A DNA stretch of 64,000 nucleotides from Competibacteraceae bacterium UBA3908 (GCA_002391525.1 DGFE01000100.1:8604-72603); one strand, 5' to 3'; counted from the first letter of the stretch, positions 13,107 through 53,141 are shown. Program-made: numbers and translations. Notes: generated by a model from the sequence alone, not told the origin.

Positions 13107-14944
13107 GCGAGGTTCGTTATGCCGTTGGCATCGATCTGGGCACCACGCACTGCGTGATGGCGGCGGTCGATCTGGCCGCCAGCGACCAGGACCAGGTGGC
13201 CGGGGAAATCGAAGGCATTCCGCAATTGACCGCGCCCGGCGCGGTCGAGGATCGACCCATGCTGCCCTCGTTCCTGTACCTGCCGCATCCCGACGAACTG
13301 AGGCCGGACGACCGCACCCTGCCGTGGGGCGAACTGCAACCGTTCGTGGTGGGCGAGCTGGCCCGCGCCATGGGCAGCCGCACCCCGATCCGGCTGGTTT
13401 CCAGCGCCAAGAGCTGGCTGTGTCATCCCGGCGTGGACCGGCGCGCGGCCATCCTGCCGGTGGAAGCGCCGGCGGAGGTGACGCGAGTCTCGCCCCTGCA
13501 AGCCTCGATGCGTTATCTGGAACATCTGCGCGCCGCCTGGGATCACCAGCATCCCGACGCGCCGTTGGCCGAACAGGACGTGGTGCTGACGGTGCCGGCG
13601 TCCTTCGATCCCGCCGCCCGCGAATTGACCGCCGAGGCGGCGGCGGCGGTCGGCCTGGGACACCTGGTGCTGCTGGAGGAGCCGCAGGCGGCGCTGTATC
13701 ACTGGATCCTGGCGGCCCAGGGCGAGTGGCGCAAGCAGGTTCGGGTCGGCGACATCATTCTGGTGATCGACCTCGGCGGCGGCACCGCCGACTTCTCGCT
13801 GATCGCCGTGACCGAACGCGACGGTTCGCTGGAACTGGTGCGGGTGGCGGTGGGCGACCACATCCTGCTGGGCGGCGACAACATGGATCTGGCGCTGGCG
13901 CACGCGGTCCGCACCAAGCTGGCCGAACAGGGAACCCAACTCGATCCCTGGCAGTTGCAGGGGTTGACCCACGGCTGCCGCAACGCCAAGGAAATCCTGC
14001 TGAGCGATGCGGCGGTCGAGACCGTGCCGGTGGTGGTGCCAAGCCGGGGCTCCAAACTGATCGGCGGTACACTGCGGACCGAGTTGACCCGCGATGAAGT
14101 GACCCGGAATCTGGTGGAGGGGTTCTTTCCATTGGTGGAAGCTTCGGCGCGGCCCGCCAGCCGGGCGCGGGCGGCGTTGACCAAGCTGGGTCTGCCCTAC
14201 GCGCAGGACCCGGCCATGACTCGCCATCTGGCGGCGTTTCTGGCCCGCCAGGTGGGCGCGACCCGCGATCTGGCCGGGTTCGAGGACCGCTTGCCGGCGG
14301 ACGCCAGCTTCCTGCATCCGACCGCCGTGCTGTTCAACGGCGGCGTGTTCAAGGCCCGGTCGCTGTTGGCGCGGACTCTGGAAGCGCTGAACGGCTGGCT
14401 GGCCGCCGAGAACGCGCCGGCGGCACGCCTGCTCGAAGGGGCCGATCTCGATCTGGCGGTGGCGCGCGGCGCAGCCTATTACGGGTACGTGCGGCGTGGG
14501 CGGGGGGTGCGGATTCGCGGTGGCACCGCCAAGTCCTACTACGTCGGAGTGGAAAGCGCCATGCCGGCGGTGCCGGGCATGGCGCCGCCCATCGAGGCGC
14601 TGTGCATCGCCCCGTTCGGGATGGAGGAGGGCACGCAGGCCGAACTGCCGCCGCAGGAAGTCGGGCTGGTGGTCGGCGAGCCGGTGCGGTTCCGCTTCTT
14701 CGGCTCCTCGGTGCGGCGTACCGACCATGTCGGCGCGGTGCTGGAACAGTGGGAACCGGACGAGGTCGAGGAACTGGAGGAGATCGAGGCCACCCTGCCC
14801 GCCGAGGGCCGGCAGCCGGGCGAGGTGGTGCCGGTGCGCTTGCACGCGGCGGTGACCGAGGTCGGTACGCTGCGGCTGGAAGCCGTGCCGCGCACCGGTG
14901 AGGAAAGCTGGAAAGTCGAGTTCGACGTGCGCGGGGAGGGTTGA
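13103..14944 (+). CDS. Hsp70/actin-fold ATPase family protein (non-DnaK paralog 1)
   Basis: VGIDLGTTHCVMA (phosphate-1), VLTVPASFD, ILVIDLGGGTADFSL (phosphate-2) and GGDNMDLAL. Confidence 0.88.
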   Translation: MSEVRYAVGIDLGTTHCVMAAVDLAASDQDQVAGEIEGIPQLTAPGAVEDRPMLPSFLYLPHPDELRPDDRTLPWGELQPFVVGELARAMGSRTPIRLVSSAKSWLCHPGVDRRAAILPVEAPAEVTRVSPLQASMRYLEHLRAAWDHQHPDAPLAEQDVVLTVPASFDPAARELTAEAAAAVGLGHLVLLEEPQAALYHWILAAQGEWRKQVRVGDIILVIDLGGGTADFSLIAVTERDGSLELVRVAVGDHILLGGDNMDLALAHAVRTKLAEQGTQLDPWQLQGLTHGCRNAKEILLSDAAVETVPVVVPSRGSKLIGGTLRTELTRDEVTRNLVEGFFPLVEASARPASRARAALTKLGLPYAQDPAMTRHLAAFLARQVGATRDLAGFEDRLPADASFLHPTAVLFNGGVFKARSLLARTLEALNGWLAAENAPAARLLEGADLDLAVARGAAYYGYVRRGRGVRIRGGTAKSYYVGVESAMPAVPGMAPPIEALCIAPFGMEEGTQAELPPQEVGLVVGEPVRFRFFGSSVRRTDHVGAVLEQWEPDEVEELEEIEATLPAEGRQPGEVVPVRLHAAVTEVGTLRLEAVPRTGEESWKVEFDVRGEG

Positions 14945-17689
14945 ACCATCGCTCGATCCAGCACGCCCCGCTATCTGGTCGGAATCGATCTCGGCACCAC
15001 GCATACGGTCGTCGCTTACGCCGATCTCCACGCCGCCACCGACATTCGTCTGTTCTCTATCGAGCAACTGATCGCGCCCGGCGCGGTGGCGGCGCGGCCG
15101 TTGCTGCCCTCCGTGCGTTATCACCCGGCGGATGGCGAGCTGGCGGCGGCAGACGTGCGACTGCCCTGGCCCTTCGCCGATCCGGGCGGGGTCGCCGACG
15201 TCATCGTGGGGGAGCTGGCGCGGGAGCGGGGCTCGCGGACGCCGGGTCGATTGGTGGCCAGCGCCAAGAGCTGGCTGTCGCACGCCGGGGTGGATCGTAC
15301 CGCGCCGATTCTGCCCTGGGGCGCGGCGGAGGACATCGCCCGGGTCTCGCCGGTCGCCGCCAGCGCCGGCACGCTCGCCTACAGCCGCGCGGTCTGGAAT
15401 CACCGGTTTCCCCGCCAACCGCTGGAGCGGCAAGAGGTGGTGCTGACCGTGCCGGCCTCGTTCGACGAAGCGGCGCGGGCGTTGACGGTGGAAGCGGCGC
15501 GGCTGGCCGGACTGCCGCAACTGCGGTTGCTGGAGGAGCCACAGGCGGCCTGTTACGACTGGCTGCGCCGCCATCGCGGCGATGTGGTGGCGGCGCTGGG
15601 CGAGTCGCGCCTGCTGCTGGTCTGCGACGTGGGCGGCGGCACCACCGACCTGACGCTGATCCGGATCGAACCCGATGAAGCCGAACCGCGCCTGACCCGC
15701 ATCGGCGTGGGCGAGCATCTGATGCTGGGCGGCGACAACATGGATCTGACCCTGGCGCGGACCGTTGAAACCCGGTTGGGCGGCGGACGCCTGAGCGCGG
15801 GCGAGTTGTCGCAACTGTTGCAGCAGTGCCGGAACGCCAAGGAACGGCTGCTGGCGGCGGACGCGCCGGAACGGGTGTCGGTGACGGTGCTGGGCGGCGG
15901 CGCGCGGCTGATCGGCGGGGCGCGCGCGGCGGAACTGAGCCGCGACGAGGTGCGCGCGCTGCTGGTGGATGGCTTTCTGCCACGGGTCGAATCCGAAGAA
16001 CGCCCCCAGAGCCGGCGCGCGGCGGTGGTTGAATTTGGTCTGCCCTATGCCGCCGATCCGGCCATCAGCCGCCATCTGGCCGCGTTTCTGGCCCAACATG
16101 CGGAAGCCTGCCGGCGAGCGCTGGGCGAGCGGACGCCGGCAAATCGTCCGCCGATGCCGGACGCGGTGTTGCTGAACGGCGGCGTGTTCCACGGCGCGGC
16201 CCTGACCGAACGGCTGCTGGAGATTCTGAGCGACTGGCGCGGGGGGGTTCTGTTGCGGTTGGACAATCCCGAACCCGATCTGGCGGTGGCGCGTGGCGCG
16301 GTGGCCTACGGGCTGGCGCGGCGCGGTCAGGGTTTACGGATCGGCGGCGGTTCGGCGCGGGGTTATTTCCTGCTGGTGGACGGTGGACGCCAGCAAAGGC
16401 GGGGCGTCTGCCTGTTGCCGCGCGGCGCGGAGGAAGGACGGGAAATCCGGCTGGATCGGATTTTCTCGCTGCGGCTCGGTGCGCCGGTACGGTTTCATCT
16501 GCTGTCCTCGACCGGGGACGCCGTGGTTGCACCGGGTGAAGTGGTCAGCCTGGATGGAGAGGATTTCGCGCCGCTGCCACCCATCGCCACGGTGATCGAG
16601 GGCGAGACCGCCGGCGAGATTCCGGTGCAGCTGGTCACCCAGTTGACCGAGGTCGGTACGCTGGAGGTGGATTGCGTCGCGGTGGACGATCCGGCGCGAC
16701 GCTGGCGGTTGGCGTTCCAGTTGCGCGGCGGCGACGCGGCGACGCTGGCCCGCCTGCATCCGCGTTTCCCGGACGCGGCGGCGCGGCTGGAGCGGTTCTA
16801 CGGTTCCCGCGCCGAAGTGGAGTCCAGGGAAATCAAGACGTTGCGCGCCGACTTGGAGCGCTTGCTCGGCAAGCGTGAAAACTGGGAGACGCCCCTGCTG
16901 CGCGAACTGTTCGGGGTATTGTGGACGGGAGCGCGGCGGCGGCGGCGTTCGGTGGAACACGAACGGCTGTGGTTCAGTCTGGCCGGTTACTGTCTGCGAC
17001 CGGGATTCGGCTATCCGCTGGACGACTGGCGGGTCCGGCGGTTGTGGACGCTGTACGGGCAAGGCGTACAATTCAGTCAGGAGGCCCAGAACTGGGCGGA
17101 ATGGTGGACGCTGTGGCGGCGGGTGGCCGGCGGGCTGGATACGGCGGCGCAGGCGCGGTTGAGCGATGAGCTGCTGCTGGATTTGCGTCCGCCGACCGGC
17201 AAGGCGGCCAGGGATCGCCGGCCGGGCGTCGAGGACATGGCGCGGCTGGCGGCGGTGCTGGAGCGGGTACCGGCGGCGCGCAAGGTCGAACTCGGTCAGA
17301 TGTTGCTGGCGCGGCTGGCGCGCAAGGGTGAATCGCCGCACCTCTGGTGGGCGGTCGGTCGGCTGGGAACGCGGGTTCCCGCCTACGGCAGCGCGCACGA
17401 TGTGGTGCCGGCGGTGCTGGCGGCGGCCTGGCTGGAACGGGTGCTGGAACTGGACTGGAAGGCGGTGATCCCGGCGGCTTTCGCCGCGACGCTGCTGGCG
17501 CGGCTGAGCGGCGACCGGGAACGGGATTTGGACGAGGCGTTGCGGACGCGGGTGATCCAGCGGCTGCGAACGGCCAGGGCCCCGGCCTCGTGGCTGCGGA
17601 TGGTCGAGGACGTCGTGGAGTTGGACGAGGTCGACGCCGGACGGCTGTTCGGCGAGACGTTGCCGCCGGGTTTGAGACTGGTTGACTGA
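14945..17689 (+). CDS. Hsp70/actin-fold ATPase family protein (paralog 2) with about 300-aa helical C-terminal extension; start codon unresolved
   Basis: YLVGIDLGTTHTVVAYA (from 14972), VLTVPASFDEAAR, LLVCDVGGGTTDLTLI and GGDNMDLTL. The frame is continuous with paralog 1 and interrupted only by TGA 14942-14944. The first canonical start, GTG 15086, lies after the phosphate-1 motif. Confidence 0.85.
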   Translation, partial: TIARSSTPRYLVGIDLGTTHTVVAYADLHAATDIRLFSIEQLIAPGAVAARPLLPSVRYHPADGELAAADVRLPWPFADPGGVADVIVGELARERGSRTPGRLVASAKSWLSHAGVDRTAPILPWGAAEDIARVSPVAASAGTLAYSRAVWNHRFPRQPLERQEVVLTVPASFDEAARALTVEAARLAGLPQLRLLEEPQAACYDWLRRHRGDVVAALGESRLLLVCDVGGGTTDLTLIRIEPDEAEPRLTRIGVGEHLMLGGDNMDLTLARTVETRLGGGRLSAGELSQLLQQCRNAKERLLAADAPERVSVTVLGGGARLIGGARAAELSRDEVRALLVDGFLPRVESEERPQSRRAAVVEFGLPYAADPAISRHLAAFLAQHAEACRRALGERTPANRPPMPDAVLLNGGVFHGAALTERLLEILSDWRGGVLLRLDNPEPDLAVARGAVAYGLARRGQGLRIGGGSARGYFLLVDGGRQQRRGVCLLPRGAEEGREIRLDRIFSLRLGAPVRFHLLSSTGDAVVAPGEVVSLDGEDFAPLPPIATVIEGETAGEIPVQLVTQLTEVGTLEVDCVAVDDPARRWRLAFQLRGGDAATLARLHPRFPDAAARLERFYGSRAEVESREIKTLRADLERLLGKRENWETPLLRELFGVLWTGARRRRRSVEHERLWFSLAGYCLRPGFGYPLDDWRVRRLWTLYGQGVQFSQEAQNWAEWWTLWRRVAGGLDTAAQARLSDELLLDLRPPTGKAARDRRPGVEDMARLAAVLERVPAARKVELGQMLLARLARKGESPHLWWAVGRLGTRVPAYGSAHDVVPAVLAAAWLERVLELDWKAVIPAAFAATLLARLSGDRERDLDEALRTRVIQRLRTARAPASWLRMVEDVVELDEVDAGRLFGETLPPGLRLVD

Positions 17690-25085: not shown

Positions 25086-25850
25086 CTAACCTGCCTCTGA
25101 ATTCCGCCGATACCATTCGGCATGTTCGGCGCTGTAAAGGTAGGACGGCGGGAATCCCTCCGGCTGGATCACCCGCCCGACCAGGATCAGCGCGGTGCGG
25201 GTGAAACCCTTGACTTCGACCTTGGCGGCGATGTCGGCCAGCGTGCCGACCACGCCGTCCTGATCCGGCCACGACACCCGGTGCAGCACCGCCACCGGGC
25301 AGGCCGCGCCGTAATGCGGAATCAGTTCCGCCACGATCTCCCGCAGTTTGTCCACGCTGAGGTAAATCGCCAGGGTTGCCCGATGCCGGGCCAGTTCCGG
25401 CAGGCTTTCGCCTTCCGGCATCGGCGTCTTGCCGGCGTGGCGGGTCAGGATAATCGTCTGGCTGACGCCCGGCAGGGTCAGTTCCCGGCGCAGCATGGCG
25501 GCCCCGGCGAACGCGGCGGTCACGCCCGGCACGACTTCGTAGGGAATCTCCAGCCGTTCCAGTTCCCGAATCTGCTCGCCGATGGCCCCGTACAGCGCCG
25601 GGTCGCCGGTGTGCACCCGCGCCACGTCCAGCCCGCGTTCGTGCGCGGCGCGGATGCGGGCGATGATCTCCTCCAGGTTCAGATCGGCGGTGTTGACGAT
25701 CTCCGCCGTCGGGTTGGCGGCCAGAATCAATTCCTTCGGTACCAGCGAACCGGCGTACAGCACCAGCGGGCATTCTCGAATCAAGCGCTGGCCCTTGACG
25801 GTGATCAGTTCGGGATCGCCGGGACCGGCGCCGATGAAATAGACCGTCAT
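25086..25850 (-). CDS. cobM: precorrin-4 / cobalt-precorrin-4 C11-methyltransferase (CobM/CbiF)
   Basis: VYFIGAGPGDPELITVKG, VARVHTGDPALYGAI and VVPGVTAFAGAA-like motifs. ATG 25850 overlaps the upstream stop. Confidence 0.9.
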   Translation of the reverse strand: MTVYFIGAGPGDPELITVKGQRLIRECPLVLYAGSLVPKELILAANPTAEIVNTADLNLEEIIARIRAAHERGLDVARVHTGDPALYGAIGEQIRELERLEIPYEVVPGVTAAFAGAAMLRRELTLPGVSQTIILTRHAGKTPMPEGESLPELARHRATLAIYLSVDKLREIVAELIPHYGAACPVAVLHRVSWPDQDGVVGTLADIAAKVEVKGFTRTALILVGRVIQPEGFPPSYLYSAEHAEWYRRNSEAG

Positions 25851-26368
25851 TCGAATTTCCCCTGGTCGAGCTGTTCCAGCAACGCCGGGGTGACGTCGTC
25901 GAAGCGGACGATGCGTTTGCCTTGATGGTCCTTCAGGAACTCCTCGGCCTCGGCCTGGGTCGCCAACGGCACCAGTTCGTGACCCATCGGCCCCAGCACG
26001 TCGGAGCCGATCACGTACCAGGCGGCTCGGGCGTCGATCCGGGTCACGCCGTAGTATTCGGTGACGCCGATGGCGGCGATGTCGGCCCGGGTGTGGCCGG
26101 GCGCGTACTTGGGCAGATTCGACAGGTATTTGAACAGGTCCTTGGCACCGTCGAAGTGGTGGAGGTGGCCGTCCTGGTACAGCGCCGTCGCTACCCAGTC
26201 GGGATAGAGGCTGACGAACATCCCGCACACCGGGCAGGTGTCCTTGGGTCCGGGGACGGGCCACTTCGACTCCTCGCTCCAGGCTGGCGACAGGGCGAAC
26301 GCCAGTAGCAACAGGAACGGCCAGTCGCGACCGATCCGCGTCTTATGTGTCCGTAATGTTTTTAGCAT
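25847..26368 (-). CDS. NosL-family putative copper-binding protein
   Basis: Signal peptide, then CPVCGMFV...HHFDGAKDLFKY and GPMGHELVPL, as in the NosL family. ATG 26368 is preferred over the longer ORF. Confidence 0.65.
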   Translation of the reverse strand: MLKTLRTHKTRIGRDWPFLLLLAFALSPAWSEESKWPVPGPKDTCPVCGMFVSLYPDWVATALYQDGHLHHFDGAKDLFKYLSNLPKYAPGHTRADIAAIGVTEYYGVTRIDARAAWYVIGSDVLGPMGHELVPLATQAEAEEFLKDHQGKRIVRFDDVTPALLEQLDQGKFE

Positions 26369-26749
26369 TTTGTCGTTGCCCAGAAGTGGCGGGCATTTTG
26401 CACTCCATCTTTTCGACAAGTTTATCGCGGGGCCGATGGAGTTGGCGAGGAATATCCACCCAACAATCACAAGTCTATTGCCAGGTTTATCGAGTAAAAG
26501 GAAAAAAGCCGGCGGGAAAAAAGCAATGATGAAACAGGGTGGTTTGAGGCTGTTTCACCTTGAAACATCATCGCCGGATATTGGATTTTGGATAACGTCC
26601 AACCAGTTGCATGACGGAGCAGGGAAATCGGGAAAATCGTTTGGGAATGAATGGTCGTAATCAGAGAGGACTGGCGGATCGTCCTTGCCCATCCAGGATG
26701 GCGGATGGCCGCCAGCCAAGCCAAAGCCGCTCGAGGCTAAGAGATCGTG

Positions 26750-29734
26750 ATGAGTATCGCGGAACTGGCAGAGAAGATCACCACCCTGCTGGCCCCGGCC
26801 ATGCCCTACCTCCAGAAAGCCGAAGGCGAAGCGATGGCGGAAGTTGTCACGCGGGAAGATGCCGATGGCTGGAGGCAGCGGACGGACGTGTTGTGGCAAT
26901 GGCTGCAACCGAAACTGGGGACGAGACCCGCCGCCATGGAAGCGGTCGCCGATCTCGCGGGCGAGCCGGAAAATCAGGATTTTCAGGCTACCTTCCGGGT
27001 GCAGCTCAGGAAGGTTCTTAGCGAGGATGCAACGTTTGCATCCAACCTGGCGCGCTTTCTCGCGTCCGTTTCCATTCCCCTCGCCCAGCCGGTGAATCAA
27101 GCGATGGCTATCGGAAATGGGAGTATTGCCCGGGATGGAGGGGTTGCCGCCGGCGCCGGTGGAGCGGCCATTGGTGGGAACGCCGGGAATGTGCACGTGG
27201 TGAATATCGGTCCGGGAGCCAATTTGTTTCTGGATCGTCCCCCGGCGCGAATGACCGATGTCGACCGGGATACGGCGCTGGGTCGCTACCTGCGGCACAT
27301 CATCAGCCATAACCGCTATCTTCAGCTTCAAGGCATCCGCTCGGGTGGCCGGCTGGTGCATATCGAACTGGAGCGCATTTTCATCTGCCTGCGCGCCACC
27401 CAGCGACGCCTGATCGTTGCCGGGGAACGCTGGCCGGGCAAGGAAAGAATGCCGGTCTCCGGGGAAAGAAGCCAGCCTGATTCCCAGGCGACGTTGACGA
27501 CCGAGATCGTGACGGTCTCGATTGGCAAGGCGCTGTCGAAGCATCCGCGCCTGGTGGTGTTGGGTGATCCAGGCAGCGGCAAGAGTACCCTGCTTCGTTA
27601 CCTGGCCCTGATCTCCGCGCGGGATCTGGCGGAGGGTCGCCGCCTGGTTCAGGACAGGCTGGGATCAGCCGAACCGAGGCGACTGCCGATCCTGTTGCCA
27701 CTTCGGCAAATCGGTCGTTTTCTCCAGGCCCGACCCGATGAAGGCACTGAAGGCCATGCCCGGTTGATCGAGTATCTCATCGCCGCGCTGGCCAGCGAGC
27801 GTATTGAACTGCCCAAGGATTTTTTCGACCCGTGGCTGACCGGGGGCGACGCCCTGATCCTGCTCGACGGCTTGGATGAGGTCGTCGATCCCGGACTGCG
27901 CCGGCGCGTCTCGCGACTGGTGGAAAGTTTCACCCAAACCTACCCCCGGTGCCGCTACGTGGTGACCAGCCGGATCGTCGGTTACACGGACGCCGCGCGG
28001 CTGGGCGAATCCTACGCGGTTACCACGATGCTCGATTTCAGCCGGGAAGACATCGCCCGGTTCCTCGGCAACTGGCACCGGCTGATCGCGGTCGCGCAGA
28101 TGGGCGAGGGCGAGAGCACGGATGCCCACGCCGCCAGACAGACCCGTCGGTTGCTGTACTTTATCAACCACAATCCGCGCATCCGCGATCTGGCTATCAA
28201 CCCCTTGCTGTTGACCGTGATCGCCATGGTTCACCGGGACCGGGTGAAATTGCCGGATCGGCGGGCCGAACTCTACGCCGAGGCCGTGGAGGTATTGCTG
28301 GGCAAGTGGGAGGAGGCCAAGGGGATGTCGGAGGCGCCGGTCCTGCTCAGGGGCCAGCCCTTCGACACCGGCGACAAGCGCCTGCTGTTGCAGGACCTCG
28401 CGCTGTACCTGCACGAGCGGAACCAGAAGCAGATCAAGGTGGAGGAACTGCATCATTTTCTGCGCGCCCGGTTCAAGGGATTGCTGCGCGAGGACCACGC
28501 GGTCGAGCAGACGGTCATCCGCTTCCTCGCGATGATCGAGGAGCGCACCGGCCTGCTGGTGGCGCGCGGCGAGGGAGTCTATGCCTTCTCCCATCTCACC
28601 TTCCAGGAATACCTGGCGGCGCTGGGCATCGCCGCCCGCGACGATTATGTGGCCTACACGCTGAAACGGGCGGGCGATCTCTGGTGGCGGGAGGTCATCC
28701 TGCTGGAAGTCGGCTACCTCGGCACGCAAAGCAAGGAAAAAACTACGGCGCTGATTCGCGCCATCGCCGAGCGGAAACGGGAACCGGAACCCTATCACAA
28801 CCTGGTGTTGGCGGCGGAATGCCTGCGCGACGTGGGCGACAATCGGGTTCAGGGCGACCTGCGACAGGAAGTCCAGCGCCGGCTGCGCCAGGATCTTGAA
28901 GCGCCGCCGCCCCTGTTCGTGCGCTGGTTCAGGAAAGCCGGAATAAAAAACTGGATCGAACAGCGCGCCCAGGCGATGGAGGCGCTGGTGCGGACCGGCG
29001 CGGGCTTCTGGACCATGCCCCATGGCGAGCCGGAATGGGTGAAAATTCCCGCCGGAACGGGGTGGATGGGAAGCAGGCGCGGACGGACCAACGAACGGCC
29101 TTTGCACCAGGTCGAACTCGATGCCTTTCTGATCGCGCGGGTTCCGATCACCAACGCCCAATACCACTTGTTCATCCGGGCCACGAGATACGCGACGCCG
29201 CGACACTGGCGGGAAGAGCGCCCACCCAAGGGCCTGGAGAGTCATCCGGTGGCCTGCGTAAGCTGGCATGACGCGCTGGCTTACTGTCTGTGGCTGAGCC
29301 GGGAGACGGGCAAGCCGATTGCCCTGCCGAGCGAGGCCCAGTGGGAAAGAGCCGCGCGGGGTGATGAAGACCAACGCGAGTATCCATGGGGTGATCGCTT
29401 TGAAGCAGCCTGGTGCAACAGTGAGGCGCTGGGGTTGGAGGCTACCACCCCTGTCGGTATTTTTCCCGAGGGCGCCAGCCGATATGGCTGCCTGGACATG
29501 GTCGGCAATGTATGGGAATGGACGAGCAGCCTCATGGATGACTATCCCTATCCCGGCCAAGGCGCCGCGCGCCGGGCGCGCGAAGATCTGACGGCACGGG
29601 GTGATCGCGTGTTGCGGGGCGGTGCGTTCGGCTACGGTCCCGTCCTCATGCGCTGCGCCTCCCGATCCAACGGCAATCCCGATGGCCTCGGCCCTGTCGT
29701 CGGATTTCGGGTGGTGACATCGTGTTCCGATTGA
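26750..29734 (+). CDS. STAND NTPase: novel N-terminal module + NACHT + C-terminal FGE/SUMF1-type domain
   Basis: Walker A is LGDPGSGKSTLLRYL (about 27563-27589) and Walker B is LILLDGLDEV (about 27854-27883). FGE-type motifs are HPVACVSWHDALAYCLWL, LPSEAQWERAARG, GNVWEWT, RVLRGGAF and GFRVV (about 29100-29725). Confidence 0.88.
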   Translation: MSIAELAEKITTLLAPAMPYLQKAEGEAMAEVVTREDADGWRQRTDVLWQWLQPKLGTRPAAMEAVADLAGEPENQDFQATFRVQLRKVLSEDATFASNLARFLASVSIPLAQPVNQAMAIGNGSIARDGGVAAGAGGAAIGGNAGNVHVVNIGPGANLFLDRPPARMTDVDRDTALGRYLRHIISHNRYLQLQGIRSGGRLVHIELERIFICLRATQRRLIVAGERWPGKERMPVSGERSQPDSQATLTTEIVTVSIGKALSKHPRLVVLGDPGSGKSTLLRYLALISARDLAEGRRLVQDRLGSAEPRRLPILLPLRQIGRFLQARPDEGTEGHARLIEYLIAALASERIELPKDFFDPWLTGGDALILLDGLDEVVDPGLRRRVSRLVESFTQTYPRCRYVVTSRIVGYTDAARLGESYAVTTMLDFSREDIARFLGNWHRLIAVAQMGEGESTDAHAARQTRRLLYFINHNPRIRDLAINPLLLTVIAMVHRDRVKLPDRRAELYAEAVEVLLGKWEEAKGMSEAPVLLRGQPFDTGDKRLLLQDLALYLHERNQKQIKVEELHHFLRARFKGLLREDHAVEQTVIRFLAMIEERTGLLVARGEGVYAFSHLTFQEYLAALGIAARDDYVAYTLKRAGDLWWREVILLEVGYLGTQSKEKTTALIRAIAERKREPEPYHNLVLAAECLRDVGDNRVQGDLRQEVQRRLRQDLEAPPPLFVRWFRKAGIKNWIEQRAQAMEALVRTGAGFWTMPHGEPEWVKIPAGTGWMGSRRGRTNERPLHQVELDAFLIARVPITNAQYHLFIRATRYATPRHWREERPPKGLESHPVACVSWHDALAYCLWLSRETGKPIALPSEAQWERAARGDEDQREYPWGDRFEAAWCNSEALGLEATTPVGIFPEGASRYGCLDMVGNVWEWTSSLMDDYPYPGQGAARRAREDLTARGDRVLRGGAFGYGPVLMRCASRSNGNPDGLGPVVGFRVVTSCSD

Positions 29735-29761
29735 AGACCACAAGCGTTATGGAGGTTCGAG

Positions 29762-30232
29762 ATGGATATTCCGGCTCTTGCAACGGCGGTGACCAGTTGT
29801 CTTGCCCCGACGCTGCCCTATCTGCTGAAAGCGGGCGAGAAAGGGATCGAAACAATCGGTTGCGAAATGGGTGCGGGAATGTGGGAAACGGCCAAGGCAA
29901 TCTGGCGGAGATTGAGTCCGGGTCCGGCGGTCGAGTCGGCGGCGCGGGAAGTCGCGAGCGCGCCGGAGGACCAGGATGCGCAGGCGGCTCTCCGCTATCA
30001 GCTCAGGAAAATGTTGGCCGCTGATGAGCAACTGGCGTCGGCGCTCGCGCGGTTGCTGGAGGAAGGCGGCAAAGTCGCGAGTCCTCATGCCGAGGTTCAC
30101 GGCGAGGGCGCCGTAGCTCAGGGACCGGGGGCGGTGGCCGCCGGAAAAGGCGGGGTCGCCGTGGGCCGCGACGTGCATGGCGGCGTGCGCATCGGTGGTA
30201 CGGAAATCATCGGGACGGTGGTCAAACCTTAG
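29762..30232 (+). CDS. 156-aa protein, stand-alone paralog of the NACHT protein's N-terminal module
   Basis: It aligns over its full length with residues 1 to about 165 of the upstream protein. MDIPALATAVTSCLAPTLPYLLKAGEK matches MSIAELAEKITTLLAPAMPYLQKAEGE, EDQDAQAALRYQLRKML matches ENQDFQATFRVQLRKVL, and both have Gly/Ala/Val-rich tails. The gap to the upstream gene is 27 nt. Confidence 0.7.
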   Translation: MDIPALATAVTSCLAPTLPYLLKAGEKGIETIGCEMGAGMWETAKAIWRRLSPGPAVESAAREVASAPEDQDAQAALRYQLRKMLAADEQLASALARLLEEGGKVASPHAEVHGEGAVAQGPGAVAAGKGGVAVGRDVHGGVRIGGTEIIGTVVKP

Positions 30233-30345
30233 CCTACAGCCCCGACCAGGATGTAGGTTGGGTTAGCGCGCGGCGCGTAACCCAAACGACCCAACCGTTG
30301 GGTTAGGCCGTAGGCCGTAACCCAACCTACTAATCATCCGGGAGT
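30231..30345. repeat. nested REP-like palindromes (GTAGGTTGGGTTA ... TAACCCAACCTAC family)
   Basis: GTAGGTTGGGTTA (30243-30255) pairs with TAACCCAACCTAC (30308-30320). Inner hairpins are TTGGGTTA/TAACCCAA and GTTGGGTTA/TAACCCAAC. The outer pair is AGCCTAC/GTAGGCT. Confidence 0.8.
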
Positions 30346-30380: not shown

Positions 30381-31001
30381 TTATCCGGCGGCATGTCGTT
30401 TCTTCTCCGCCCGCTTCTTCCGGATCATCATGGTGTCGCCGGCCATGCTTTGATAGGCGGCTTGCAGGGCGGCGTCGAAATCGCCCAGTTCGCCGCCCTG
30501 TTCAGCCTTGGCGGCTTCGGCGTCCGCCTTGGAAGCGAAGGCGACCTTGCTTTGCTTGGTCATGACGCCCGGCAGTTTGGAGCCGATCAGGTAGGTGGCC
30601 GCGTCCACGTTCACCAATGGCTTCGGGTCGGCTTTCGCGCCGAAATCGGCAGCGTAAATGGCTTTGGGTCCCCGGTCCAGGTTCAGCGCGAGGCTGAGCG
30701 CGGCGCAGTGCAGCGAGCAGGTGGCGTCCACCCGGTCGTCCTGGTAATGGACCAGATGGCGGCTGTGGTGGTATTGCTTGCGATCCATGCCGCAGTAAGG
30801 GCATTTGGGATACTTGGCCAGTTCATTCTCCAGCGGATTGGGGTCCGGCGCGGTTTTGGGGACGAATTGCAGCGGGGTGCCGTCGGTTTCGCACTTCGCG
30901 GCGAGGGCGGGCGGACTCAGGGTCGCGACGCCGGCGCTGACGCCCGCCACGGCGAAAAGACGCAGGACTTGTCGACGTTCGATCTGGATGGAATCGTTCA
31001 T
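30381..31001 (-). CDS. Tat-exported NosL-like/TRASH-type metal-binding protein
   Basis: RR leader ERRQVLRLFAVAGVSAGVA, with CPYCGMDRKQYHHSR...CSLHC. ATG 31001. Confidence 0.6.
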   Translation of the reverse strand: MNDSIQIERRQVLRLFAVAGVSAGVATLSPPALAAKCETDGTPLQFVPKTAPDPNPLENELAKYPKCPYCGMDRKQYHHSRHLVHYQDDRVDATCSLHCAALSLALNLDRGPKAIYAADFGAKADPKPLVNVDAATYLIGSKLPGVMTKQSKVAFASKADAEAAKAEQGGELGDFDAALQAAYQSMAGDTMMIRKKRAEKKRHAAG

Positions 31002-31079
31002 GAGTGCGGTTTCCCCGATTGTGGTTATGGAAGAGGTCACAATTGTAGGACAGGAGCGCGCCAAAGGGATTGACAATGA

Positions 31080-37541: not shown

Positions 37542-39176
37542 ATGGCCGCTCCCGCCACCTCCTTTCGGGTCGTCATGGCCCAACTCGATTTCCTGGTCGG
37601 CGACATCAACGGCAACGTCGGCAAAATCGCCGCCGCTGCCGCCGAGGCCCGTGACCGGTTGCGGGCCGATCTGATCGTGTTCCCCGAACTGACCATCACC
37701 GGCTATCCGCCAGAGGATTTGCTGTTGCGTCCCGGTTTCATCCGTCAGGTGAAGCCGGCGTTGCAACGGCTGTGCGGAGAAATTCAAGGCATCGCCGTCG
37801 TGATCGGTTGTCCGCTGCCGACGCCGGACGGATTGCGCAACGCCGCCGTGGTGCTGGACGACGGCGCGATGCGGGCGACGTATTACAAGCAATGGTTGCC
37901 GAATTACAGCGTGTTCGACGAGAAACGCTATTTCGTGCCGGGCGAGGATCCGGCGGTGGTGGCGGTGGCGGGGGTGCGGGTGGGCGTGACCATCTGCGAG
38001 GATGTCTGGTTGCCGGGGCCGGCCGCGCAAGCGGCCGAGGCCGGAGCACAACTGCTGATCAATCTCAACGCCTCACCCTATCACGCCGGCAAGAGCGACC
38101 AGCGGCTAAGCGTTTTGCGCGAGCGGGTGCGGGAAAGCCAGATTCCCATCGTCTACGTCAACCTGCTGGGCGGGCAGGACGAGTTGGTGTTCGATGGCGG
38201 TTCGATGGTGGTTGGCGTTGACGGTACGCTGGTTCGGCGGGCGCCGTTTTTCGCCGCCGGCCTGTATCCGGTGGATTTCCAGGTTTCCGCGGCCGGTATG
38301 ACGCCGATTCCGGGCGAGGTCGCCGAGGAACCGGGGTTGGAGGAGGGCATCTATCAAGCCCTGGTGCTGGGCGTGCGGGATTACGTCGAAAAAAATGGCT
38401 TTCCCGGCGTGGTGCTGGGTTTGTCCGGCGGCATCGATTCGGCGCTGACCCTGGCCATCGCCGTGGACGCGCTGGGACCGGAACGAGTCGAGGCGGTGCT
38501 GATGCCCTCGCGCTATACCGCCGAGATGAGCAATACCGACGCCGAGCTGGAAGCCAGGGCGCTGGGGGTCGGGTATCACATCCTGCCGATTGAGCCGGCG
38601 TTTCAAGCCTTTCTACAGGTGTTGCAACCGGTGTTCGCCGGGCTGCCGCCGGATATCGCCGAGGAGAACATTCAGGCCCGTTGCCGGGGTGTATTGTTGA
38701 TGGCGATTTCCAACAAGACCGGCAAGCTGGTGCTGACCACCGGCAACAAGAGCGAGACGGCGGTCGGTTATTCGACCCTGTACGGCGACATGGCCGGCGG
38801 CTTCGCTCCGATCAAGGATGTGCTCAAGACGATGGTTTACCGGCTGGCGGCTTATCGCAACAGCCTGTCGCCGGTGATTCCGCGACGGGTGTTCGACCGG
38901 CCGCCGTCGGCGGAACTGCGCCCGGATCAGACCGATCAGGACAGCCTGCCGCCTTACGAGCTGCTGGATGCGATCCTGCACGGTTACGTGGAGGAGGATC
39001 GCTCGGTGGAAGAGCTGATCGCGGCGGGCTTCGACCGGGCGACGGTGGAGCGGGTGGCGCGGCTGGTGATCGTCAACGAGTACAAGCGCCGGCAGGCCGC
39101 GCCGGGCGTGCGCATCACCCCACGCGCCTTTGGCCGCGACCGGCGCTATCCGATCACCTCGGGATTCCGGCGCTAG
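37542..39176 (+). CDS. nadE: glutamine-dependent NAD+ synthetase
   Basis: N-terminal CN-hydrolase domain (LIVFPELTITGYPPEDL, ICEDVW) and C-terminal synthetase domain (GLSGGIDSAL, TGNKSETAVGYSTLYGD). Confidence 0.92.
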   Translation: MAAPATSFRVVMAQLDFLVGDINGNVGKIAAAAAEARDRLRADLIVFPELTITGYPPEDLLLRPGFIRQVKPALQRLCGEIQGIAVVIGCPLPTPDGLRNAAVVLDDGAMRATYYKQWLPNYSVFDEKRYFVPGEDPAVVAVAGVRVGVTICEDVWLPGPAAQAAEAGAQLLINLNASPYHAGKSDQRLSVLRERVRESQIPIVYVNLLGGQDELVFDGGSMVVGVDGTLVRRAPFFAAGLYPVDFQVSAAGMTPIPGEVAEEPGLEEGIYQALVLGVRDYVEKNGFPGVVLGLSGGIDSALTLAIAVDALGPERVEAVLMPSRYTAEMSNTDAELEARALGVGYHILPIEPAFQAFLQVLQPVFAGLPPDIAEENIQARCRGVLLMAISNKTGKLVLTTGNKSETAVGYSTLYGDMAGGFAPIKDVLKTMVYRLAAYRNSLSPVIPRRVFDRPPSAELRPDQTDQDSLPPYELLDAILHGYVEEDRSVEELIAAGFDRATVERVARLVIVNEYKRRQAAPGVRITPRAFGRDRRYPITSGFRR

Positions 39177-39182
39177 CGGGTC
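39021..39182 (+). repeat. 162-bp direct repeat, copy 1 (authentic 3' end of nadE)
   Basis: 160/162 identical by eye to 46168-46329. The differences are G/A at 39026 vs 46173 and G/A at 39050 vs 46197. Confidence 0.92.
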
Positions 39183-46085: not shown

Positions 46086-46167
46086 TGCGCACCTGCCAAA
46101 GATTAAGAAGGTTCCAGATTAAAAACATTTCAGCGCGGAAATTATTCCGTCCGGCAGCGAATGGATA

Positions 46168-46323
46168 GCGGCAGGCTTCGACCGGGCGACGGTGGAACGG
46201 GTGGCGCGGCTGGTGATCGTCAACGAGTACAAGCGCCGGCAGGCCGCGCCGGGCGTGCGCATCACCCCACGCGCCTTTGGCCGCGACCGGCGCTATCCGA
46301 TCACCTCGGGATTCCGGCGCTAG
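46168..46323 (+). pseudogene. orphan duplicated 3' fragment of nadE (last 51 codons + stop)
   Basis: It encodes [51 protein letters not shown], with no upstream nadE body. It lies within the second copy of the 162-bp repeat (46168-46329). Confidence 0.85.
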
Positions 46324-47120
46324 CGGGTCAGTTCCGGCGTCAGGTGCGGTTGCAGCTCCTGTAGCAATGCCTTGAAGATCTTGGGATTGCCGGCGACGAT
46401 GTTGCCGGATTTCATGAAATCGTTATCGCCGCCGAAATCGCTGATCAGCCCGCCGGCTTCCTGCACCAGCAGCACGCCGCCGGCGATATCCCACGCTTTC
46501 AGACCGATCTCCCAGAAGGCATCCAATCGTCCGGACGCCACGTAAGCCAGGTCCAGCGAGGCCGCGCCGGCGCGGCGGATTTCCACGCATTTGCCGAACA
46601 GGCTGCCGAAGAAGCTGAGATAGGCCGTCTGGTGCTGGGGATGGCGGAATGGAAAGCCGGTGCCGAGCAAGGCGTTTTCCAGCGCGTTGACGCCGCTGAC
46701 CCGGATACGTCGGTCGTTCAGTTGCGCGCTCTCGCCGCGGGAGGCGGTGAACATCTCCTGCCGGATCGGATCGTAAACCAGCGCCGCTTCGAGCCGGTTT
46801 TTGTGACGGAAGGCGATGGAGATAGCGAAATGGGGGATGCCGTGCAGGAAATTGGTGGTGCCGTCCAGCGGATCGATCACCCACTGATACTCGTCCTGGC
46901 CCGGTGCTTCGCCGCTTTCCTCCGCGAGGATGCCGTGATTGGGGTACGTCTTGCGCAGGGTTTGAATGATCTCCCGCTCGGCCTGTACGTCCGCTTCGCT
47001 GACGAAATCGTTGCGCTGTTTGGCGGTGACGTTCAGCCGTTCGAGGTGATCGAAATGGCGCAACAGGATGCGGCTGGCGCCGAGGGCGGCGCGCCTGGCG
47101 ATGGTCAAGACTGGATGCAT
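46320..47120 (-). CDS. suhB: inositol monophosphatase family protein SuhB
   Basis: [19 protein letters not shown], and the AWDIAGG-type motif ([15 protein letters not shown]). Confidence 0.92.
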
Positions 47121-52505: not shown

Positions 52506-53141
52506 ATGTTTTTTGAATGGATCAAACCAATGAGACTAAAAAGCATGGTGGTTGCGGTTCTATGGATTTCTACGCCGGCAGTCCTGCACGCTGGACAGAA
52601 CGATGCGGCGGCCATGGATGCCGTGATGGGGGTTATGCGGATGATGCAGCAGTCCGGGGGAGGCGGTCCGGGAGACGATGAGGTGATGGATGTCTTCGAT
52701 AGAGCAGTACAGGGTTCCCGCGACCGTGATCGCGACCGGTCGGGGCGGAGTGGCAACCGGCGCGGCGAGCAGCGGCGTGGTGCGAATTTCGACGATGACG
52801 ACGGTGGTGGCCAGCGGCGCCGCACGGGGTTTGACGACGACGGCGGTGGTCGGCGGCGGGGATCGGGCTTCGATGACGACGGTGGTGGTCGGCGGCGCGG
52901 ATCGGGCTTCGACGACAACGGTGGTAGCCGGCGCCGCACCGGGTTCGATGACGACGGCGCGGGTCGGCGGCGCGGATCGGGCTTCGACGACGACGGTGGT
53001 GGTCGGCGGCGCGGATCGGGCTTCGACGACGACGGTGGTAGCCGGCGCCGCGGATCGGGTTTCGATGGCGACGGTGGTCGGCGGCGGGGATCGGCATCCG
53101 ACGATGATGGTGGTCGACGCCGCCGCCAGAATCAGGATTAG
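52506..53141 (+). CDS. secreted low-complexity protein with about 9 tandem G-F-D-D-D-G-G-G-R-R-R-G-S repeats
   Basis: Signal-peptide-like N-terminus (MRLKSMVVAVLWISTPAVLHAG). The repeat units are in-frame. The gene is followed by a strong intrinsic terminator. The start is ATG 52506 or 52530. Confidence 0.6.
   Translation: MFFEWIKPMRLKSMVVAVLWISTPAVLHAGQNDAAAMDAVMGVMRMMQQSGGGGPGDDEVMDVFDRAVQGSRDRDRDRSGRSGNRRGEQRRGANFDDDDGGGQRRRTGFDDDGGGRRRGSGFDDDGGGRRRGSGFDDNGGSRRRTGFDDDGAGRRRGSGFDDDGGGRRRGSGFDDDGGSRRRGSGFDGDGGRRRGSASDDDGGRRRRQNQD
52785..53138 (+). repeat. tandem 39-bp (36-42 bp) repeats, about 9 units
   Basis: The unit is GGCTTCGA(T/C)GACGACGGTGGTGGTCGGCGGCGCGGATCG. Unit boundaries fall at 52827, 52866, 52905, 52941, 52980, 53019, 53058 and 53094. 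Confidence 0.9.

Follow-up and report, generated by a model that had tools for sequence, protein, structure and literature searches.

The window analysed here is a 64,000-nucleotide (nt) stretch, read on one strand, from Competibacteraceae bacterium UBA3908 (GCA_002391525.1 DGFE01000100.1:8604-72603), and the element under study is a pair of collinear genes at positions 26,750 to 30,232. We propose that this locus is probably a two-gene amyloid-signalling module of the Bell/BASS type, with motifs of the BASS6 family, in which a receptor resembling the nucleotide-binding oligomerisation domain (NOD)-like receptors (NLR) would act as sensor, templating of an amyloid motif would carry the signal, and a free protein of 156 amino acids (aa) would attack the membrane. 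An earlier note, made from the sequence alone, had read the pair as a candidate NLR-type conflict system of unknown output built on a homotypic, amyloid-type module. That core logic holds. The kind of system is already known, both the Bell domain and the BASS6 motif having been published: judged by sequence, the module shared by the two proteins is the already described Bell-type helical domain followed by BASS6. The fusion of effector, motif and NOD beside a free copy is a minor architectural twist that is not described in the texts cited here; otherwise the locus is of a known kind.

Organisation of the gene pair

The first gene (26750..29734, + strand) encodes the NLR, a 994-aa protein composed of a Bell-like domain, a BASS6 motif, a NACHT NTPase and a C-terminal domain of the formylglycine-generating enzyme type (FGE/FGS). 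This length counts from an ATG; a GTG one codon earlier, at 26747, would give 995 aa, and the gene call on the public contig (L050) agrees with 26750..29734. An intergenic spacer of 27 nt (29735..29761, +), with a Shine-Dalgarno GGAGG at 29751-29755, separates it from the second gene (29762..30232, +), which encodes the free Bell-BASS6 protein of 156 aa, the predicted cell-death executor. The two open reading frames (ORFs) and the gap between them are confirmed as the earlier note had placed them, and the same 27-nt spacing was found at two related loci (L026 and L009) of the genome scan described below.

The note had further taken the small protein for a paralogue of the NLR N-terminus. Indeed, NLR residues 1-183 align with the small ORF at 41% identity over 143 aa (BLASTP with compositional adjustment, E=5e-25). 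Without its Gly-rich tail, the small ORF (helical residues 1-108) still matches NLR residues 2-106 (phmmer, E=2e-14), so the similarity of the two N-terminal modules is not merely compositional. A trace of the paralogy persists at the DNA level, over 58 nt (26955-27012 versus 29952-30009, 72% identity). The motif and domain scan of the window returned no BASS6, NACHT, FGE or Bell sequence other than those of this pair.

The Bell domain and the BASS6 motif

Residues 1-108 of the small protein (29762..30085, +) correspond to a helical bundle of putative Bell type whose N-terminal helix is hydrophobic (MDIPALATAVTSCLAP), and residues 112-144 (30095..30193, +) to the effector-side BASS6 motif, which follows a regular 7-residue register, GEGAVAQ GPGAVAA GKGGVAV GRDVHGG (motif hidden Markov model (HMM), E=4e-17). 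The tail, EGAVAQGPGAVAAGKGGVAVGRDVHGGVRIGGTEIIGT, is near-identical to A0A2M8U067 (DGAVAQGPGAVAAGKGGVAVGGDLHGGARIGGTEITGT), an entry of cluster C09 in the datasets of PMC8086366. According to the README of these datasets, cluster C09 is BASS6 (Dyrka et al. 2021, PMC8086366), and this set consists of the C-termini of Bell proteins (Dyrka et al., PMC8086366). Homologs of the small ORF are almost all 140-167 aa long and come from metagenome-assembled genomes (MAGs) of Competibacter and Contendobacter and from other metagenomes; the tail, GxGA(I/V)AQGPGAVAAGKGGVAVGGDVxG, is their most conserved part, and it is also found on proteins with unrelated N-terminal domains, for instance the 221-aa TIR protein P0084.

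According to Dyrka et al. (2020, bioRxiv 10.1101/2020.01.06.895854), the Bell domain is helical and ~100 aa long, its first helix is hydrophobic, and position 2-3 holds an acidic residue. The helical part of the small ORF fits this description: it is helical, ~100 aa long, with a hydrophobic helix 1 (mean hydropathy 1.19, one charged residue) and an acidic residue 2, this Asp2 being kept in at least 90% of the 28 homologs in our alignment. The AlphaFold2 (AF2) model of the small protein, with a predicted local distance difference test (pLDDT) score of 70, places helices at residues 3-14, 18-23, 33-51, 55-66, 71-87 and 89-102, most of them at pLDDT ~80-88, followed by a low-confidence beta tail. 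The structure prediction that the earlier note had suggested as a check gives a bundle of helices (residues 3-102) and yielded no significant fold match in the PDB.

In the NLR, residues 1-115 (26750..27094, +), within which the phmmer match above lies, correspond to a divergent Bell-type helical domain, and residues 121-151 (27110..27202, +; GNGSIARDGGVAAGAGGAAIGGNAGNVHVVN) to the receptor-side BASS6 motif (motif HMM, E=2e-5 and 7e-6). The HMM match covers residues 122-151, upstream of the Walker A motif (residue 272), a position homologous to that of the N-terminal motif in canonical BASS6-NACHT-FGE proteins. The deviation is that the motif comes here after a Bell-like domain and not at the extreme N-terminus.

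With a profile of the Bell-BASS6 family, 4336 representative clusters (50% identity) were retrieved at a cutoff of E<=1e-3, and 1513 remained at one of E<=1e-10; most are 130-170 aa long. Long proteins made up ~9 of the top 150 matches, and those checked included Bell-BASS6-NACHT-FGE proteins (P0116, P0156, P0161), a Bell-type domain fused to NB-ARC-TPR (P0221) and a trypsin-nSTAND1 form (P0137). A word-indexed search with the NLR N-terminus retrieved 10 proteins only.

Bell-BASS6 loci in other genomes

A genome scan, with one genome per species, gave 43 loci, for whose annotation phmmer and HMM probes were built from window sequences. A free Bell-BASS6 gene is present in 26 loci, window included, which belong to Competibacteraceae, to Thermoanaerobaculia and Holophagales (Acidobacteriota), to Anaerolineae and Caldilineaceae (Chloroflexota) and to Desulfobacterota. 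This gene has a same-strand NACHT neighbour, nearly always BASS6-NACHT-FGE, in 20 of these 26; the synteny with NTPases of the STAND class (signal transduction ATPases with numerous domains), on which the earlier note had made its reading depend, is therefore real. The NLR gene lies directly downstream of the free gene in 15 of the 20 loci, often with an overlap of 4-14 nt, and upstream of it in the other five. The window, with its NLR gene first on the same strand, belongs to this minority, as do L024 and L045. Six loci have no NACHT match nearby; among the loci without such a match, L013 and L031 offer next to no downstream sequence, L007 shows a fragment of FGE at the edge of its contig and L027 has an upstream flank of just 590 nt. 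In L034 (884-4093) and L036 (6442-8727), the Bell-BASS6 gene is followed by one for a large protein that has BASS6 at its N-terminus and does not match the window NACHT probe; BASS6 may also be coupled to other types of NTPase or sensor.

The canonical partner NLRs consist, ahead of NACHT, of a 30-45-aa leader and the motif only, with no helical domain. Other BASS6 carriers have unrelated effector domains: TIR in L001 and L048 and caspase (Peptidase_C14) in L005, L038 and L041, each with the motif at the protein end, CHAT in L029, and PNP_UDP fused ahead of BASS6-NACHT-FGE in one polypeptide in L010 (1770-5282) and L012 (1870-5280). This last form is a further all-in-one combination of effector, motif and NOD that keeps the amyloid motif internally. 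All these TIR, caspase, CHAT and PNP_UDP proteins are paired with, or fused to, NACHT-FGE. Because the motif alone is common to the canonical NLRs and to these carriers, we take the motif to be the adaptor, and BASS6 would be a common one, connecting Bell, TIR, caspase, CHAT and PNP_UDP outputs to NACHT-FGE receptors. The helical domain, which holds the place of the enzymatic death effectors of the sister systems, is itself the predicted effector; the statement of the earlier note that the effector step is unexplained does not stand.

One of these loci, L005 (1-12017, Caldilineaceae MAG GCA_046328745.1), resembles a defence island: it carries HsdM, a Mrr-type nuclease, a caspase-BASS6 gene followed by NACHT-FGE, a Bell/HetE-N-BASS6 gene followed by NACHT-FGE, and a Y1 transposase. 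There, two BASS6 pairs lie next to each other, each with its own effector.

The receptor

The NACHT P-loop NTPase core (27551..28081, +) was recognised by Pfam at residues 268-444 (E=1.4e-11, 45 bits against a cutoff of 26.7). Both nucleotide-binding motifs are present, Walker A as GDPGSGKS at residues 272-279 and Walker B as LILLDGLDEV. The C-terminal FGE-sulfatase domain (FGS, C-type-lectin fold; PF03781) occupies residues 760-989 (29027..29716, +; Pfam E=2.9e-55, 188 bits against 23.3) and aligns well to solved structures of the FGE family. The two domains are those named in the earlier note, and the Pfam searches for NACHT and FGE-sulfatase that it had proposed find them; PADLOC, proposed with them, gave no family-level match.

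In the alignment to human FGE chains the catalytic Cys pair (human FGE C336/C341) is absent and the NLR has GGAFGYGPVLMRCASRS at this place, the segment at the active-site position reading, as aligned, GGAFGYG--PVLMRCASRS. The NCBIfam equivalog scores of the NLR for EgtB, PvdO and SenA are far under the cutoffs. A catalytic FGE, EgtB or PvdO function was ruled out on both grounds. As the catalytic cysteine pair is missing, the FGE domain is probably the sensor, with a predicted lectin-like binding of ligand. FGS domains on STAND NTPases have been predicted to be lectin-fold sensors of invaders (Kaur et al. 2021, eLife, PMC8195603), a view with which the missing catalytic residues agree. We also considered diversification of the FGE domain by a diversity-generating retroelement and dropped it, since the window showed no template/variable repeat pair involving the FGE region; no search was aimed specifically at reverse transcriptase.

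Origin and selection of the fused receptor

The window NLR carries Bell and BASS6 in cis and has a free copy downstream. The same fused architecture is found in L026, where the NLR protein is 77% identical; L009 and L007 are consistent with it. Further fused Bell-BASS6-NACHT-FGE proteins are encoded in L010 (6001-9081), L011 (2847-5879) and L018 (5863-8904). In a neighbour-joining (NJ) tree of the NACHT-FGE core, which gives rough support for the count, fused proteins occupy three separate places, and the clade of the window NLR is sister to the canonical unfused NLRs of L021 and L047. This suggests that Bell-NLR fusions arose repeatedly, three or more times by this tree.

From where the motif ends, fused proteins are orthologous to canonical ones (for example '...PMTAVDRxxxLGRYLQHxISxNRYLQLQGIRSGG'). 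Ahead of the motif the fused proteins carry the Bell domain in place of the leader, with the junction inside BASS6; the comparison suggests that fusion proceeded by in-frame loss of the DNA between the two neighbouring motif-coding repeats in a canonical pair. In L010 and L011 the gene order is fused NLR, free Bell-BASS6, then canonical BASS6-NACHT-FGE (L011) or a NACHT ORF truncated where the locus ends (L010), and this third gene is absent from the window lineage. The common arrangement is Bell-BASS6 upstream of BASS6-NACHT-FGE, and a fused NLR with a free copy is a derived state. The earlier description of the small gene as a stand-alone copy of the NLR's own N-terminal module is accordingly right as to the copy and needs amending as to the rule, which is a Bell-BASS6 gene upstream of a motif-only NLR.

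Both genes are under purifying selection. The nonsynonymous to synonymous rate ratio (omega) is 0.11-0.22 for the free small ORF (window versus four relatives) and 0.27 for the NLR overall (window versus relatives); within the NLR it is 0.48 for the Bell domain (window versus L026), 0.41 for the BASS6 motif, 0.24 for NACHT and 0.21 for FGE. Evolution has been more rapid in the helical copy of the NLR than in that of the free protein, and the NLR Bell copies of the window and L026 have lost the near-invariant Asp2. Helix 1 of the fused copies (window 26750-26815, compared with 29762-29827 in the free gene; likewise L026, L011 and L018) has 3-4 charged residues and a lower hydropathy, against typically one charged residue in free copies. 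Because the tethered copy is more divergent and its helix 1 more charged, the free copy is probably the main, amplifiable executor. It is conceivable, if doubtful, that the fused form is a distinct selected design and no decaying remnant, in which an attenuated tethered Bell domain (Asp2 lost, helix 1 more charged, selection relaxed) and a receptor-type BASS6 would make a built-in non-lethal seed or safety catch beside the amplifiable free executor. Deletions between neighbouring motif repeats would then create such fusions time and again, and the motif would also be a recombination hotspot through which effectors are exchanged between NLRs.

Proposed mechanism and alternative explanations

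By analogy with the Bab/Agp system and the fungal HET-S/NWD2 paradigm, we infer the following course of events. The FGE-fold domain of the NLR would bind an invader-derived or stress signal, which would free the NACHT NTPase to oligomerise. The oligomer would gather the receptor BASS6 segments (residues ~121-151) into a cooperative cross-beta or beta-solenoid fold of GxGAVAx heptads; the heptad and a sub-threshold similarity to YadA_head hint at a beta-roll-like geometry. This fold would then template the tail of the free 156-aa protein, with its almost invariant BASS6, and conversion of the tail would release the hydrophobic helix 1 of the ~100-aa Bell bundle, a predicted HeLo/MLKL-like membrane-targeting domain, leading to membrane attack, cell death and abortive infection. 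In the Bell/BASS literature, prion and fibril formation is documented for the BASS1 and BASS3 motifs, as is conversion of the Bell-side motif by the one on the NLR side. Bab/Agp (BASS11) has been shown experimentally to be an amyloid-dependent abortive-infection antiphage system, with a Bell-related executor of solved structure (Ibarlosa et al. 2024, bioRxiv 10.1101/2024.11.07.622273), and STAND-FGS systems in which N-terminal modules are shared have been predicted to sense invaders (Kaur et al. 2021, PMC8195603).

Several observations weigh against this interpretation. The AF2 tail of the small ORF has a pLDDT of 44-62. The model gave no significant HeLo/MLKL/Bab-like fold match against the PDB with Foldseek (none at E<=0.001, best E ~0.9; E=1.6 for potato Rx-CC), and searching PDB sequences with a profile likewise returned nothing significant; at the level of fold, membership of the helical domain in the HeLo/Bab superfamily is putative, and fold conservation within this HeLo/Bab/MLKL-type superfamily is very low according to the literature. 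Neither window protein matches Pfam HetE-N (PF20701) even at E<=10, and this family was detected in just one of the 28 aligned homologs, the distant P0081, with 17.5 bits for a gathering score of 25 bits; precomputed annotations assign PF20701 to seven distant homologs. Pfam found no match on NLR residues 1-170, and Pfam, NCBIfam and PADLOC gave no family-level match for the N-terminal module and the small ORF, the sub-threshold YadA_head similarity being confined to the Gly-rich tail. PADLOC v2 misses the system, with matches at the P-loop level only (E>=1e-3), and NCBIfam EruA scores 39.6 bits for a cutoff of 1000. The genes around the pair are of a housekeeping kind (cobalamin genes, NosL, redoxin, a two-component system) and do not make a defence island. 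The experiments in the cited Bell/BASS papers cover BASS1, BASS3 and BASS11, BASS6 being computational there. Finally, the free gene precedes the NLR gene in most loci, and the window free copy might be the orphan of a lost downstream NLR.

This last point can be developed into an explanation of its own, which we consider unlikely and which would alter the cognate partner of the free protein, not the kind of system: the fused NLR would be self-contained, and the downstream Bell-BASS6 gene would be the leftover effector of a lost canonical pair, or be triggered in trans by other BASS6 NLRs. Besides the position of the free gene, directly upstream of the NLR in 15 of the 20 informative loci, it can draw on the order fused NLR, free Bell-BASS6, canonical NACHT gene in L010 and L011 and on the Bell tree, which groups the window free copy with L008-type free genes whose NLRs fall in another NACHT clade than the window NLR; the effector-side motif is also nearly invariant between systems, so cross-talk is plausible. 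However, an NLR gene followed at 27 nt by the small gene is kept in L026 and L009, with L007 consistent, an upstream NLR occurs also in L024 and L045, the low omega of the small ORF indicates purifying selection, and within 64 kb the upstream NLR is the only other carrier of BASS6.

Two further explanations concern the division of labour within the shared module. The Gly-rich heptads might be a stable oligomerisation element with a YadA-head-like beta-roll, acting by induced proximity or co-oligomerisation without self-propagating templating. The regular 7-residue register would suit such a structure, as would the sub-threshold matches to Pfam YadA_head in 23 of 28 family members, but these stay under the gathering threshold (best E=2.3e-4, 21.9 against 25 bits), and the free protein has too few repeats for a stable solenoid alone. 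The motif is also kept within all-in-one fusions (Bell- and PNP_UDP-BASS6-NACHT-FGE), where templating in trans is not strictly required; against this, BASS6 is classified with nine other BASS families of like genomic logic and composition, and in other families the members that were tested yielded prions and fibrils. We judge this explanation very unlikely. The idea that the helical domain is a homotypic adaptor of the Death-like or effector-associated domain (EAD) type, with the Gly-rich part a mere linker and the true effector elsewhere, seems to us hardly credible. It has a precedent in the 'EAD principle' of Kaur et al. (PMC8195603), by which one copy of an adaptor sits on the NTPase and others on effectors, and the helical domain is common to both window proteins. 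The canonical partner NLRs, however, have the motif and no helical domain, the TIR, caspase, CHAT and PNP_UDP partners have just the motif in common, and the NLR-borne helical copy is the faster-evolving of the two; the free protein, made of helical domain and motif only, would be an adaptor without cargo. We retain the two-gene Bell/BASS6 module, with sensor NLR, templating and membrane-attacking free protein, as the preferred reading.

Genomic surroundings

The pair is flanked on both sides by minus-strand NosL genes (25847-26470 and 30381-31076), as the earlier note had recognised. In L026, ORFs of similar size lie on the minus strand at positions corresponding to the NosL genes (matched by size, strand and position), and the NosL bracketing appears to be conserved rather than a fresh insertion scar. 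The view that this is a recently inserted accessory island was rejected: the GC content of the locus does not deviate from that of its flanks, and the context is apparently conserved in L026. The upstream intergenic leader between NosL and the NLR gene (26471..26749, +) had been called AT-rich; its GC content is indeed lower, but moderately so (~0.53 against ~0.64 in the flanks), and it contains no match to the sigma-70 consensus.

Downstream of the pair, an imperfect palindrome (30253..30330, no strand assigned) with 33-nt arms that are 76% complementary may be a terminator or a hairpin resembling repetitive extragenic palindromic (REP) elements. The earlier note had seen REP palindromes here, but this is one palindrome whose arm, GTAGGTTGGGTTA, occurs once in the 64-kb window, and a multi-copy REP element was discarded on this ground.

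Elsewhere in the window, a tandem array with a 39-nt period (52754-53137) comprises 7 or more copies, with 65-84% identity to the reference one, within a long open frame on the + strand. A 166-nt direct repeat (39017-39182 and 46164-46329) has two copies that are 98% identical and 7.1 kb apart; this pair may delimit a mobile or duplicated segment. Several patches of ~13760-14523 match ~15617-16350 at 73-87% DNA identity, always offset by 1827-1857 nt, which indicates two tandem paralogous genes.

Significance and comparison with known systems

The locus does not overturn the current understanding and brings no new principle. Its interest is that the data suggest a route from two-gene pairs to all-in-one NLRs, and that it joins two literatures on the same systems, Bell/BASS (Saupe and Dyrka) and STAND-FGS/EAD (Aravind). 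BASS6 is so far computational in the cited papers, where experiments bear on BASS1 and BASS3 (prion, fibril) and BASS11 (Bab/Agp); as the two genes of this 3.5-kb locus hold sensor, motif and predicted executor, it can be cloned whole and makes a convenient test case.

With the Bell/BASS6 pairs of Dyrka et al. (2020) the locus shares a small protein of ~150 aa with a ~100-aa helical N-terminus, hydrophobic helix 1, acidic position 2 and ~30-aa G/A/V-rich C-terminal motif, the recurrence of this motif N-terminal to the NACHT of a collinear adjacent gene, and a tail near-identical to the BASS6 entry A0A2M8U067. It differs in that the receptor has a whole Bell-like domain before the motif instead of a short leader, the free effector gene lies downstream and not upstream of the NLR gene, the C-terminal sensor is an FGE/FGS domain, and the host appears to be a Competibacteraceae-like gammaproteobacterium, whereas Dyrka et al. 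stress Actinobacteria and Cyanobacteria.

As in the STAND NTPase-FGS systems (Kaur, Iyer, Burroughs, Aravind 2021, PMC8195603), a NACHT/STAND NTPase ends in a PF03781 domain, a neighbouring gene encodes the N-terminal module separately, and relatives of the window (L005, L010, L011) have several paralogous NTPase-FGS systems per locus. Their modules are bDLD3, EAD1, EAD2, EAD7, EAD8 and enzymatic effectors, in contrast to Bell (HetE-N-like) and BASS6 here, and they often, but not obligatorily, come with a diversity-generating retroelement, of which no template or variable repeat was found in the window.

The logic of the fungal HET-S/NWD2 and HeLo/HeLL pairs is the same, an NLR oligomer nucleating an amyloid fold that templates the motif on a helical pore-forming effector from the adjacent gene. 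No sequence or fold match to them was detected for the window proteins, and the fungal systems are described as two-gene clusters or as all-in-one proteins, an all-in-one protein with motif beside a free copy not being mentioned in the cited texts.

The experimental precedent for the mechanism proposed here is Bab/Agp of E. coli (Ibarlosa et al. 2024), in which adjacent genes likewise have a common short amyloid motif and a small Bell-related helical protein ends in that motif; Bab executes cell death at the membrane, which is only predicted for the window protein. The motif is BASS11, not BASS6, and the Babybell domain is shorter (~80 aa). HetE-N was found in TPR-GreA/B-C-PIN systems (Kaur et al. 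2021, PMC8195603), and the same system was later shown, as Bab/Agp, to use a Bell-related executor. Judged by sequence and genomic context, the locus studied here fits both the Bell/BASS6-NLR pairs and the STAND-FGS systems.

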